Virus record (IMG/VR): IMGVR_UViG_2917886563_000007
Direction: 5' to 3' (one strand)
Origin: a virus
Taxonomy: Duplodnaviria; Heunggongvirae; Uroviricota; Caudoviricetes
Length of the DNA: 64,000 nucleotides
The position numbers and the translations under genes are program-made. The notes below the pieces were generated by a model. That model searched no databases. It saw nothing but the letters and a program-made list of their open reading frames with translations, and was not told the origin of the DNA. This document shows positions 24,761 through 25,428 of the stretch, one piece after another (positions within the stretch are counted from its first letter, which is position 1; the number at the start of each line of letters is the position of its first letter).

Positions 24761-24976
24761 ATGTCAAATAAAATGACTGGTTTAGTAAAATGGTTTAACG
24801 CTGATAAAGGTTTTGGCTTTATTTCTCCTGTTGATGGTAGTAAAGATGTGTTTGTGCATTTTTCTGCAATTCAGAATGATAATTATCGAACCTTATTTGA
24901 AGGCCAAAAGGTTACCTTCTCTGTAGAGAGTGGTGCTAAAGGTCCTGCAGCAGCAAATGTCATTATTACTGATTAA
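24761..24976 (+). CDS. Cold-shock protein, CspA family (prophage moron)
   Basis: 71-aa protein [38 protein letters not shown] with RNP motifs. Confidence 0.9.
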
Positions 24977-25175
24977 AATTCATAGCTTGTCTGTATACGA
25001 TAACGAAGAAGGCTGATGCCTGAGTAGAGATGCAGATAGAGTTGTGGGTATTGAATCCCATTTTGTGGTGAAGTGCAGGTTTGCTGCATGAATAGTTTTA
25101 CAGTAGAAGCTAACTGCTGGCATAGCAATACAAAGTGCGTAAGTGGGTAACTACCACAAAAAGCACCACAATCTC

Positions 25176-25199
25176 AAACCCGCGCAGGCGGGTTTTTTA
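25176..25199 (+). terminator. Rho-independent terminator
   Basis: cccgc-gcag-gcggg hairpin followed by ttttttatt. Confidence 0.55.
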
Positions 25200-25257
25200 T
25201 TATCTGATTTAAATATATTATTAAAATATAAAAACTCTTTGTAAGTAATCAAAACAC

Positions 25258-25428
25258 TCAGGCAACAGCTTTAAGATTTGTTTGGAATACTTTGTTGCAA
25301 TGAGGGCAGATCAAAAGGGCACCTTTTTGTACTCTAGAAAAACTGTGTTCTGATTCTTGGGTACAGTTTGGGCAGGAACATTTTACGAGATAATTACGGC
25401 GTGATTTTGAGTCTTTACGTTCTGACAT
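25258..25428 (-). CDS. YdfK/YnaE-like small zinc-ribbon protein (prophage moron)
   Basis: 57-codon minus-strand ORF translated by hand (MSERKDSKSRRNYLVKCSCPNCTQESEHSFSRVQKGALLICPHCNKVFQTNLKAVA), not in the ORF track. Confidence 0.6.
   Translation of the reverse strand: MSERKDSKSRRNYLVKCSCPNCTQESEHSFSRVQKGALLICPHCNKVFQTNLKAVA

Follow-up and report, generated by a model that had tools for sequence, protein, structure and literature searches.

A probable cspB-ynfU cargo module in a Qin-type lambdoid late region, with a candidate structured 3' UTR behind cspB

Introduction

The late region of the Qin prophage of Escherichia coli K-12 has the gene order quuQ - ynfS/cspF - cspB - ynfU - essQ - ydfR - rrrQ - rzpQ. 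A cargo of cspB and ynfU is already known, as both are annotated K-12 genes and the interval between Q and the holin gene is a textbook cargo site. The defining motifs of the cold-shock domain are the nucleic-acid-binding motifs RNP1 and RNP2, and CspA-family proteins are known as transcription antiterminators. YnfU of K-12 was found by ribosome profiling and was detected after tagging (doi 10.1101/511675). According to the literature on stationary-phase K-12, it is the most abundant among the newly found small proteins; the bacterial papers mentioning YnfU that were consulted give no function for it.

The locus described here lies within 64,000 nucleotides of tailed-phage DNA (IMG/VR record IMGVR_UViG_2917886563_000007), referred to below as the window. 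Since cspB and ynfU are arranged in it as in K-12 Qin, the locus is ordinary, apart from a conserved and unannotated RNA structure behind cspB.

Results

The genes and putative signals of the region are collected in Table 1. cspB and ynfU are placed between Q/tR' and the lysis cassette of a lambda-like prophage that keeps its head, tail, replication and integration modules, which are those of a complete lambda-like genome. The original prediction had given this location, and it holds, with Q and a terminator upstream and the holin, lysozyme and Rz genes downstream. DNA that is 99.8% identical is present in E. coli SF-468, within a lambda-like prophage spanning int to the tail genes, and this near-identical variant is rare, as only 4 of the 5,482 E. 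coli records with a match reach 99% identity or more. The mechanically called reading frame of Q begins earlier than the one adopted here, at TTG 23611, and the Q protein shares 93.2% identity over 250 aa with QuuQ/YdfT of K-12 Qin. The terminator scan placed a terminator-like hairpin 105 nt past the Q stop codon; in phage Ayreon the stretch homologous to the late leader is annotated "terminator", and positions 24400-24522 are 87% identical to Stx2c phages. The promoter scan made its own proposal within the late leader, TCGACA-18-AAAAAT at 24413-24442. Overall it returned five promoter-like sites against a mean of 4.8 in shuffled sequence, hence no excess, and the promoters listed are candidates placed by consensus match.

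Table 1. Features of the region from Q to the lysis genes (window coordinates).
Feature	Position	Strand	Description and basis
Late-gene antiterminator Q	23641-24393	+	250 aa from ATG 23641; Pfam PF03589 Antiterm, E = 4e-53
Late-promoter leader	24425-24531	+	candidate PR' and tR'-like intrinsic terminator
Candidate PR'	TTGCAT 24425-24430, TAGGAT 24448-24453	+	17-nt spacer; putative hexamers, read by eye
tR'-like intrinsic terminator	stem 24499-24522	+	followed by T run; terminator scan
Junction of 552-bp block	24526-24537		ynfS and opposite-strand cspF in K-12 Qin, CB9615 and others; blastn breakpoints
cspB promoter candidate and long 5' UTR	24564-24760	+	UTR ~24600 to 24760
Candidate cspB promoter	TTGCTT 24564-24569, TGc-GTTAAT 24585-24593	+	18-nt spacer; putative hexamers, by eye
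cspB	24761-24976	+	71 aa; cold-shock protein of the CspA family
S0 RNA hairpin	24986-25040	+	directly after cspB stop; 12-bp outer stem covaries
Junction of 88-bp deletion	25057-25063		missing relative to Qin: hairpin H0; blastn breakpoints, cross-genus alignment
E1 structured RNA domain	25063-25170	+	closing stem GUGGUG/CACCAC around three hairpins
Intrinsic terminator of cspB transcript	25176-25201	+	AAACCCGC-GCAG-GCGGGTTT then TTTTTA; terminator scan (25176-25195) and regional fold
ynfU	25258-25428	-	56 aa and stop (57 codons); C4 zinc-ribbon; convergent with cspB, antisense to late transcript
Candidate ynfU promoter and leader	25429-25500	-	only upstream part conserved across genera; 19-species alignment A2
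ynfU leader elements	AATAAT box 25495-25490; GTGTAATGT box 25464-25456	-	also SD CAGGAAA; alignment A2
Lysis cassette	25650-26796	+	P21-type holin, endolysin, Rz spanin
Holin	25650-25865	+	Pfam Phage_holin_2_1, 2e-35; 94% identical to EssQ
Endolysin	25865-26362	+	Pfam Phage_lysozyme, 2e-46
Rz spanin	26347-26796	+	Pfam Phage_lysis, 8e-36

The slot behind the leader had been predicted to be a cargo site, and the comparison bears this out and shows it to be variable: in Stx2c phages the same type of Q and the same leader are followed by a methylase, two tRNAs and stx2A/B, and in Ayreon by other genes. Besides this alternative cargo behind the same Q/tR' leader, some of the otherwise collinear phages have the block containing cspF and others lack it. 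In K-12 the 552-bp block is flanked on both sides by ATGGGG microhomology. Both genes of the window look like self-contained cargo, in keeping with the moron character that had been ascribed to them. The further statement that several E. coli cryptic prophages share this arrangement was too broad for K-12; the one K-12 copy that was mapped lies in Qin, and the K-12-derived records listed hold one copy each of the cspB-ynfU spacer.

The reading frames proposed for the two genes were exact in coordinates and strand, neither frame is due to chance, and the assignment of the first to the CspA family is confirmed by matches to Pfam CSD (E = 1.1e-31, 108.9 bits, cut-off 27) and to the CspA subfamily NF007679 of NCBIfam (143.3 bits, cut-off 130). 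Its product also matches PHROG 729, and the translation contains KGFGFI (RNP1) and VFVHF (RNP2) in the context ...DKGFGFISP...DVFVHFSA.... A total of 70 of the 71 residues are identical to K-12 CspB (98.6%), compared with ~71% identity to the paralogue CspI (70.6%) and ~41% to CspF (41.4%). E. coli genomes that are 99.8% identical here annotate the gene as cspB. Judged by this near-identity and by the neighbours that it shares with Qin (Q and ynfU/holin), the gene is a Qin-type CspB orthologue.

The 5' UTR of cspB contains a cold-box-like TGAAGAACAGAC, and positions 24600-24992 match the cspA thermoregulator of Rfam (RF01766) with 155.9 bits (gathering score 78; E = 7.5e-42). The match begins at model position 1, which is the expected transcript start. 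By structure and sequence match, cspB thus appears to keep a cspA-type thermosensor leader, and cold induction is predicted.

The second gene had been named YdfK/YnaE-like, which would make the slot a Csp gene next to a YdfK-type gene. This reading of the 57-codon minus-strand frame was right about its position, and the mix-up is understandable, since YdfK is a Qin protein with the annotation "cold shock protein YdfK". The name is nevertheless wrong. The product shares 55 of 56 residues (98.2%) with K-12 YnfU (b4776), while BLASTP against K-12 YdfK gave only a 2-residue match with E = 16; it is recognized as YnfU by Pfam PF23499 (E = 2.5e-31, 107.7 bits, cut-off 27) and by NCBIfam NF038384 (79.8 bits, cut-off 36), and it has no Pfam or NCBIfam match to YdfK/YnaE. 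A tblastn search with YdfK over the whole window reached at best E = 0.045 over 15 residues, elsewhere in the window, and hence revealed no YdfK relative. K-12 YdfK is 77 aa long and has no cysteine, so that it cannot be a zinc ribbon, and its gene adjoins pinQ, ~7.5 kb from ynfU. That the gene is a YdfK/YnaE relative is accordingly extremely improbable. The BLAST check suggested with the original prediction therefore came out for the Csp half of the claim and against the YdfK half, and the useful outcome is a corrected name, YnfU instead of YdfK.

The other part of that claim, by which the minus strand carries a small zinc-ribbon gene, was well founded. YnfU has two CPxC knuckles, C19-P-N-C22 and C41-P-H-C44, which show no or almost no variation among 29 homologues, and the AlphaFold model shows a zinc-ribbon core with pLDDT of 80-87. 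Motif and model shape together make YnfU a predicted C4 zinc ribbon. Profile comparison with the PDB gave marginal matches only (Tim15/Zim17, E = 0.0096; L44e, 0.03; PhnA-like PA0128, 0.37), and PHROGs yielded weak matches (E >= 0.0026), all to families without an assigned function. An exhaustive YnfU profile search returned 43 clusters, all of them small proteins or mis-called fusions/repeat proteins, with no informative domain fusion, and PADLOC found nothing. Upstream of ynfU, the promoter scan matched TTTAAA-17-AATAAT at 25518-25490 on the minus strand, and the conserved upstream box is retained in 19 species regardless of the neighbouring genes. A clear terminator belonging to ynfU itself is lacking; the cspB terminator is 57 nt away from the ynfU stop codon.

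The interval between cspB and ynfU proved to be the least ordinary part of the locus. In alignment A8, which comprises 19 S0 sequences from several genera, 89% of the cells are paired, compared with 27-42% in slid controls, and compensatory changes occur in 14 of 17 pairs. The covariation score was 0.556 versus 0.221 in shuffles, and none of 500 shuffles reached 0.556. S0 was also recovered by single-sequence folding, and of 120 viral contigs with its motif, 117 have it immediately downstream of a csp gene. The internal loops of S0 are near-invariant (ACGAWGANGG...CCUGAGUAG). Taking a canonical stem, a 3-nt bulge, tandem G.A/A.G pairs and a second stem as the description of a kink-turn, the internal loop is a candidate kink-turn-like element by eye (AC/GU stem, GAW bulge, GA opposite GA, then GG/CC), which is only a lead. 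For E1, alignment A7 of 21 distinct sequences is 91.5% paired with 17 of 35 pairs compensatory, again a result that 0 of 500 shuffles reached, and the window reaches 104 bits with covariance model R1. The consensus fold has -20.6 kcal/mol on the plus strand versus -12.5 on the minus strand, the G.U pairs fit the plus strand, and the window's own fold gave z = -3.75 (+) and -1.6 (-).

The conservation of the spacer could instead reflect a small protein encoded on the minus strand (47-51 aa) or the 3' UTR of ynfU. Minus-strand reading frames do exist (24973-25128 and 24980-25123), some database proteins (P0050, P0058) read through from YnfU into the spacer, and in phage PHB10 a "hypothetical protein" is annotated over the element. 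However, the 88-bp K-12 insertion falls inside the frame and is not a multiple of 3, further indels occur in other genera, the stem substitutions are compensatory, and the G.U pairs agree with the cspB strand only. The minus strand folds no better than shuffled sequence, as evidenced by the above z of -1.6. Moreover, the element follows csp genes in loci that lack ynfU or have it in another place, as in Yokenella (L083), an E. coli plasmid (L099) and Salmonella (L038). We consider a coding or ynfU-UTR origin very improbable, and the minus-strand frames were rejected as genes on account of the indels, the compensatory changes and the fold.

It is quite possible, if short of probable, that what lies here is an undescribed, conserved structured 3' UTR on cspB-type genes of Enterobacteriaceae phages, plasmids and chromosomes, consisting of S0 followed by H0 and E1, of which latter two only E1 is left in the window. 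Such a UTR could control cspB mRNA stability or yield a 3'-UTR-derived regulatory RNA, and YnfU, convergent in most genomes, could partner the UTR or CspB. Neither S0 nor E1 had an Rfam match at E <= 1 over window positions 23000-27000 or in the loci of K-12, Kluyvera, Kosakonia and Superficieibacter. The only sub-threshold match in the spacer, to Trp_leader (20.6 bits), was rejected, as it is the terminator hairpin. No feature is annotated beneath E1 in any of the E. coli records listed, and a literature search for the cspB 3' UTR or for cspB-ynfU found no paper; a RIL-seq study mentions cspB only once, unrelated to the 3' UTR. S0 and E1 were rejected as a general csp feature because K-12 chromosomal cspA and cspG have neither. 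In K-12 the 88-bp piece holds an SD and an 11-codon mini-ORF that are not conserved in other genera.

To survey the genomic settings of ynfU, 80 species-representative loci were compared, and a csp gene was found within 600 bp of ynfU in 56 of them. We called a locus non-phage when no homologue of four marker proteins (Q, holin, lysozyme, Rz) was present within 6 kb; 69 loci carry this label, 46 of them csp-adjacent, and since it rests on four markers within 6 kb, some may lie in other islands. When counted by distinct flank contexts, 42 of 56 were csp-adjacent. The Citrobacter ynfU locus adjoins a GmrSD restriction gene. The ynfU/cspB/cspF arrangement occurs together with the structured cspB 3' UTR in non-phage settings across the Enterobacteriaceae: the Kluyvera triad is part of the core chromosome, flanked by rsmF and copD/exoX, and that of Klebsiella has metabolic genes on both sides. 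As the ynfU-csp linkage is found mostly in non-phage chromosomal loci, the module in the phage is probably of host origin, and both genes were most likely taken up together, in a single block, from a bacterial chromosome, a direction to which the distribution points.

Genes that lie 100-400 bp apart can stay tightly linked without a functional tie.

Discussion

The region very likely constitutes a cspB-ynfU cargo module of a Qin-type lambdoid late region, made up of two self-contained host-type genes between PR'-tR' and the holin gene. In a lysogen, PR' transcripts would end at tR', so that cspB and ynfU would each be expressed from a promoter of their own. cspB would be produced at low temperature by way of its cspA-type 5' UTR thermosensor, giving the host one extra CspA-family RNA chaperone, and ynfU would yield a small zinc-ribbon protein from the opposite strand. 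Upon induction, Q-modified RNA polymerase would run past tR' and the terminator of cspB and on into the lysis genes, a read-through that would co-transcribe cspB and cross ynfU antisense.

An alternative is that the module serves the phage itself, with late transcription and translation in the cold aided by CspB from the late transcript, in the role of RNA chaperone or antiterminator, and with the strong cspB terminator and the convergent ynfU shielding the holin and endolysin genes of the lysogen from cold-induced cspB read-through. The co-orientation of cspB with the late operon, directly after tR', would suit such a role, as would the antiterminator activity of the CspA family, and ynfU is found on the opposite strand directly upstream of a holin gene in three separate settings, namely the window, Klebsiella phage ST13-OXA48phi12.4 (57% identity, csp gene absent) and Enterobacter sp. 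EA-1. Yet the same convergent ynfU/cspB arrangement is kept at chromosomal loci without any lysis genes that could be shielded, related functional phages hold quite different cargo in the slot, and ynfU is present in only 8 of 50,697 phage records. A benefit to the phage is thus unlikely, and we prefer to regard cspB and ynfU as cargo of host type.

Two by-products of this work are relevant to researchers on cold shock and on small proteins. The linkage of YnfU to cspB/cspF-type genes across the Enterobacteriaceae provides a first testable hint on the role of this protein, and the cspB 3' UTR is a candidate element for post-transcriptional control of a cold-shock gene. It is worth noting that E. 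coli cspB is normally listed as one of the nine csp genes of the host, and the distribution suggests that it is a module which a phage took from a chromosome.

Among known systems, K-12 Qin is the nearest: Q, tR', cspB, opposite-strand ynfU and the holin gene are shared in the same order and on the same strands, with protein identities of 98.6% for CspB, 98.2% for YnfU, 93% for Q and 94% for the holin, and DNA identity of 88-95%. The window differs from Qin in that it lacks the 552-bp ynfS-cspF block, ydfR and the 88-bp hairpin H0 of the cspB 3' UTR, and in that its endolysin and Rz are of another type (the endolysin is ~33% identical to those of Qin-type loci). Its prophage is complete in modules, whereas Qin is a decayed remnant. 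YdfK/YnaE is likewise a small prophage gene (Qin/Rac) and itself carries a cold-shock label; it has no similarity to YnfU in sequence, lacks cysteines, and differs in length and in position in Qin. With the cspA mRNA thermosensor (RF01766), cspB shares a 5' UTR and coding region that match at twice the gathering score; it lacks the last 29 model positions, which correspond to the cspA terminator, and has instead a structured 3' UTR of ~225 nt (S0, E1, terminator) such as K-12 chromosomal cspA and cspG do not possess.

The inducible lambdoid phages 2H10, HannyBb, PhiR63_1, Tritos and PhiR42_1, to which the window DNA is 93% identical, carry cspB with or without cspF, and a ynfU that is often unannotated, between Q and the holin gene. 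Gene order and strands of the cspB-ynfU region also match those of CB9615 and Tritos. Unlike the window, all five phages retain H0; 2H10, HannyBb and PhiR63_1 carry the cspF that the window lacks, and Tritos has an extra cspI module after Rz that is likewise missing from the window. The moron slot of Stx phages is similar in having the same Q family and an 87% identical PR'-tR' leader, followed by variable genes and then lysis genes; it differs in that the cargo of the window consists of a cold-shock gene and a zinc-ribbon gene, one of which opposes the late transcript.

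Identity of the two genes

The original prediction described a CspA-family gene and, on the minus strand, a YdfK/YnaE-like gene of 57 codons; both ORFs were recovered at exactly the bounds it gave (see table), and on sequence grounds neither is a chance ORF. The product of the first gene matched the Pfam cold-shock domain (E = 1.1e-31), scored above the curated cut-off of the NCBIfam CspA subfamily, and is identical to K-12 CspB at 70 of 71 residues (CspI, 71%; CspF, 41%). For the second gene, a BLASTP comparison with K-12 YdfK produced a match of two residues (E = 16), and no YdfK relative was found anywhere within the window. 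Since the Csp match is strong and a YdfK match is absent, the Csp call was right and the YdfK call wrong. K-12 YdfK is a protein of 77 residues with no cysteines, encoded elsewhere in the cryptic prophage Qin and adjoining pinQ. The zinc-ribbon gene is ynfU: its product matched Pfam PF23499 'YnfU' (E = 2.5e-31), exceeded the cut-off of NCBIfam NF038384 'YnfU family zinc-binding protein', and shares 55 of 56 residues with K-12 YnfU (b4776). Only the family assigned to the second gene had to be corrected; the rest of the observation was confirmed.

Features of the cspB-ynfU region (window positions)
Feature	Position	Strand	Description
Q antiterminator	23641-24393		PF03589; 93% identical to QuuQ
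Candidate PR'	24425-24453		TTGCAT, 17-nt spacer, TAGGAT; read by eye
tR'-like terminator	24499-24522		Strong terminator-like hairpin, 105 nt past the Q stop codon
cspB	24761-24976	+	71-aa ORF, CspA family
S0	24986-25040	+ (cspB strand)	Hairpin; 12-bp outer stem, covarying in every pair
E1	25063-25170	+ (cspB strand)	Closing stem around three hairpins
ynfU	25258-25428	-	56-aa ORF, C4 zinc ribbon
Holin, P21-type	25650 (start)		94% identical to EssQ; then lysozyme and Rz

YnfU was discovered when stalled initiation complexes were mapped by ribosome profiling. In that study it exceeded the other new small proteins in abundance and alone among them had a recognisable motif, namely two CPxC zinc knuckles (doi 10.1101/511675). 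The portion of the literature naming YnfU that was covered here gives no function for it. A structure model predicted a simple C4 zinc-ribbon protein whose N-terminal tail is basic; searches by fold and by profile returned generic zinc ribbons only. Marginal matches of the family profile to the Tim15/Zim17 DNL zinc finger (E = 0.0096; common pattern C-x2-C...S.H..S...KG..LI.CP.C) and to ribosomal protein L44e (E = 0.03) may reflect convergence among zinc ribbons. The gene is convergent on cspB. Its upstream conservation among 19 species extends only about 75 bp from the ATG, regardless of the sequence beyond, which would fit a compact promoter of its own.

Late leader and variable slot

The predicted neighbours, a Q antiterminator upstream and the lysis genes downstream, were both present. 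The late leader shares 87% identity with its counterparts in the Stx2c phages and in phage Ayreon, where the hairpin carries a terminator annotation. What follows this Q type and leader differs: a methylase, tRNA-Met, tRNA-Arg and stx2A/B in the Stx2c phages, other genes in Ayreon; such different cargo behind a common Q and leader supports the predicted reading of a cargo site.

Two side observations concern this region in other phages. The gene at the Q position of Klebsiella phage ST13-OXA48phi12.4 (L100, 4298-5113) is labelled 'molecular chaperone', probably an annotation error; Q proteins examined from elsewhere have a weak match to the DnaJ zinc finger, which could account for the label. 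In a Superficieibacter prophage (L039, 5740-5869), an STnc100-like small RNA (Rfam, 68 bits) with no counterpart in the window lies between holin and ynfU.

Regulatory structure of the cspB transcript

The Rfam cspA thermoregulator model matched from about 24600, running from model position 1 through the coding region with 155.9 bits (gathering score 78); a match from the first position indicates that cspB retains the long cold-shock 5' UTR. Just upstream of this leader we infer a cspA-like candidate promoter (TTGCTT, 18-nt spacer, TGcGTTAAT). At the other end, the stop codon is at 24976, but the terminator scan placed the terminator of cspB no earlier than 25176-25195. The cspB-ynfU spacer equals the coding regions in its conservation across genera.

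Two RNA elements, S0 and E1, occupy this 3' UTR. In an alignment of 19 S0 sequences, 89% of cells were paired (27-42% in slid controls), compensatory changes occurred in 14 of 17 pairs, and the covariation score was 0.556 versus 0.221 in shuffles, 0 of 500 of which reached the observed value. The S0 interior has near-invariant loops (ACGAWGANGG...CCUGAGUAG), and by eye its internal loop resembles a kink-turn. For E1, 21 distinct sequences gave pairing in 91.5% of cells and compensatory changes in 17 of 35 pairs, with 0 of 500 shuffles reaching this, in an alignment fitted to the covariance model and thus favouring structure. In K-12 and other genera an extra hairpin, H0, stands before E1; it corresponds exactly to the 88 bp missing from the window. 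The consensus fold was calculated at -20.6 kcal/mol on the cspB strand versus -12.5 on the opposite strand, the G.U pairs suit the former, and the window's own fold recovered S0, E1 and the terminator with z = -3.75 versus -1.6; on these three grounds the cspB strand is taken to be the active one. Minus-strand ORFs across the spacer were rejected as genes, being broken by indels that are not multiples of three.

From their distribution, S0 and E1 go with the csp gene and not with ynfU. In Yokenella they are present with ynfU on the far side of cspF; on the 324-kb E. coli plasmid NZ_CP100967.1 (L099, 2130-2612) a csp gene annotated cspG is followed by an S0 variant and E1 without ynfU; and 117 of 120 viral contigs with the S0 pattern have it directly behind a csp gene. 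Salmonella has S0 only, and neither element was found behind K-12 cspA or cspG. The E1 element is present in 1,716 E. coli genomes and in 92 plasmid-borne copies, with no annotated feature under it in any E. coli record listed; no Rfam family matched S0 or E1, and phrase searches retrieved no paper on the cspB 3' UTR or the cspB-ynfU pair. A 'hypothetical protein' of phage PHB10 overlaps E1 (L101, 2734-2859), probably through an annotation error. In Citrobacter amalonaticus the element is interrupted by a 64-nt insertion (L089, about 6340-6405, approximate), presumably like an ERIC/IRU repeat fragment (GAGTTGCAGG...CTGCAACTTGAAGTATGACGAGTATA).

Proposed working of the module

Taking as established the identity and orientation of each gene, the variability of the slot, both terminators and the thermosensor-type leader, we propose that in the lysogen late-promoter transcripts would end at tR'; cspB would then depend on a cold-responsive unit of its own, and a separate promoter would serve ynfU. 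Once the prophage is induced, Q-modified polymerase would pass both terminators, and such read-through would co-transcribe cspB with the lysis genes and collide with ynfU transcription. CspB would serve as one more CspA-family RNA chaperone.

Linkage of ynfU to csp genes and origin of the module

The YnfU family is narrow: only 43 clusters, nearly all from Enterobacteriaceae, emerged when 1.84 billion representatives were searched exhaustively with a profile. Neighbours were scored at one locus per species in 80 species, and a csp gene lay within 600 bp of ynfU at 56 of these loci; the 80 represent 56 distinct flank contexts, with a csp-adjacent locus in 42. In the commonest pattern (22 loci), that of the Qin triad, ynfU converges on a cspB-like gene, and this gene diverges from a cspF-like one. 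At 69 loci none of four marker proteins of the window (Q, holin, lysozyme, Rz) had a homologue within 6 kb, and 46 of those loci are csp-adjacent. The Kluyvera triad lies in the core chromosome between rsmF and copD/exoX, and in Klebsiella ynfU and a csp gene stand between metabolic operons. In Kluyvera georgiana (L087, 7538-7682) the triad is directly beside the SraC/RyeA-SdsR/RyeB small-RNA locus.

Possibly CspB aids late expression in the cold, with the terminator and ynfU shielding the lysis genes from cspB read-through; this phage-centred view is weakened, however, by the identical arrangement in chromosomes without lysis genes. Most simply, a phage late region would have acquired a ynfU/cspB/cspF block from a host, with cspF lost afterwards from the copy in the window. 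In two cases that lack a csp gene, a Klebsiella phage (57% identity) and an Enterobacter prophage, ynfU lies immediately before the holin gene on the opposite strand. More distant YnfU relatives are solitary, with no csp gene nearby. Linkage over 100-400 bp is only a hint of shared function, since inertia can preserve it. The 3'-UTR structures and the ynfU-csp linkage, both drawn purely from comparison, are the only new leads.

Close relatives and comparison with Qin

DNA of 99.8% identity was found in four complete E. coli genomes. In one of these, SF-468, the segment is part of a lambda-like prophage (int, exo/bet/gam, repressor region, O/P/ren, nin, Q, lysis, head and tail genes) inserted at the tRNA-Thr adjoining proA, and the window is collinear with most of it. 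At about 93% identity, the module occurs in about 1,600 of 5,426 complete E. coli genomes and in six records of inducible lambdoid phages: 2H10 (two records), HannyBb, PhiR63_1, Tritos and PhiR42_1.

The first 8.3 kb of the window had no good match in the 5,426 genomes; within 1-10500 the matched part was 8299-10500 only, which holds two adjacent integrase genes, one annotated intF. Positions 9834-9882 match the 3' 49 nt of the tRNA-Thr beside int in SF-468 and ARAGORN found no tRNA in the window, so the prophage seems to abut another integrative element and not an intact tRNA. Over 24200-25900, a contig of Escherichia sp. E1V33 (L013) is 100% identical, and only four complete E. coli genomes are at least 99% identical; its source may be an Escherichia lineage other than E. 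coli.

The interpretation in the original prediction is partly supported. Its likening of the arrangement to several E. coli cryptic prophages finds no support for K-12, where the single mapped copy is that of Qin, the prophage compared directly, and each K-12-derived record listed has one spacer copy. In the H0 piece of Qin (L002, about 7175-7262, minus strand; approximate), a perfect Shine-Dalgarno sequence (TAAGGAGGT) is followed after 7 nt by an 11-codon ORF, MKQWLAYLAKS, which has no annotation in NC_000913 and is not conserved in other genera. Unlike K-12 Qin, the window lacks this 88-bp piece, at junction 25057/25063, and a 552-bp block directly after tR' that holds ynfS and cspF on the opposite strand and is flanked by ATGGGG microhomology. 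The Qin-type cspB-ynfU cargo is already known biology, represented here by a rare variant without cspF and H0.
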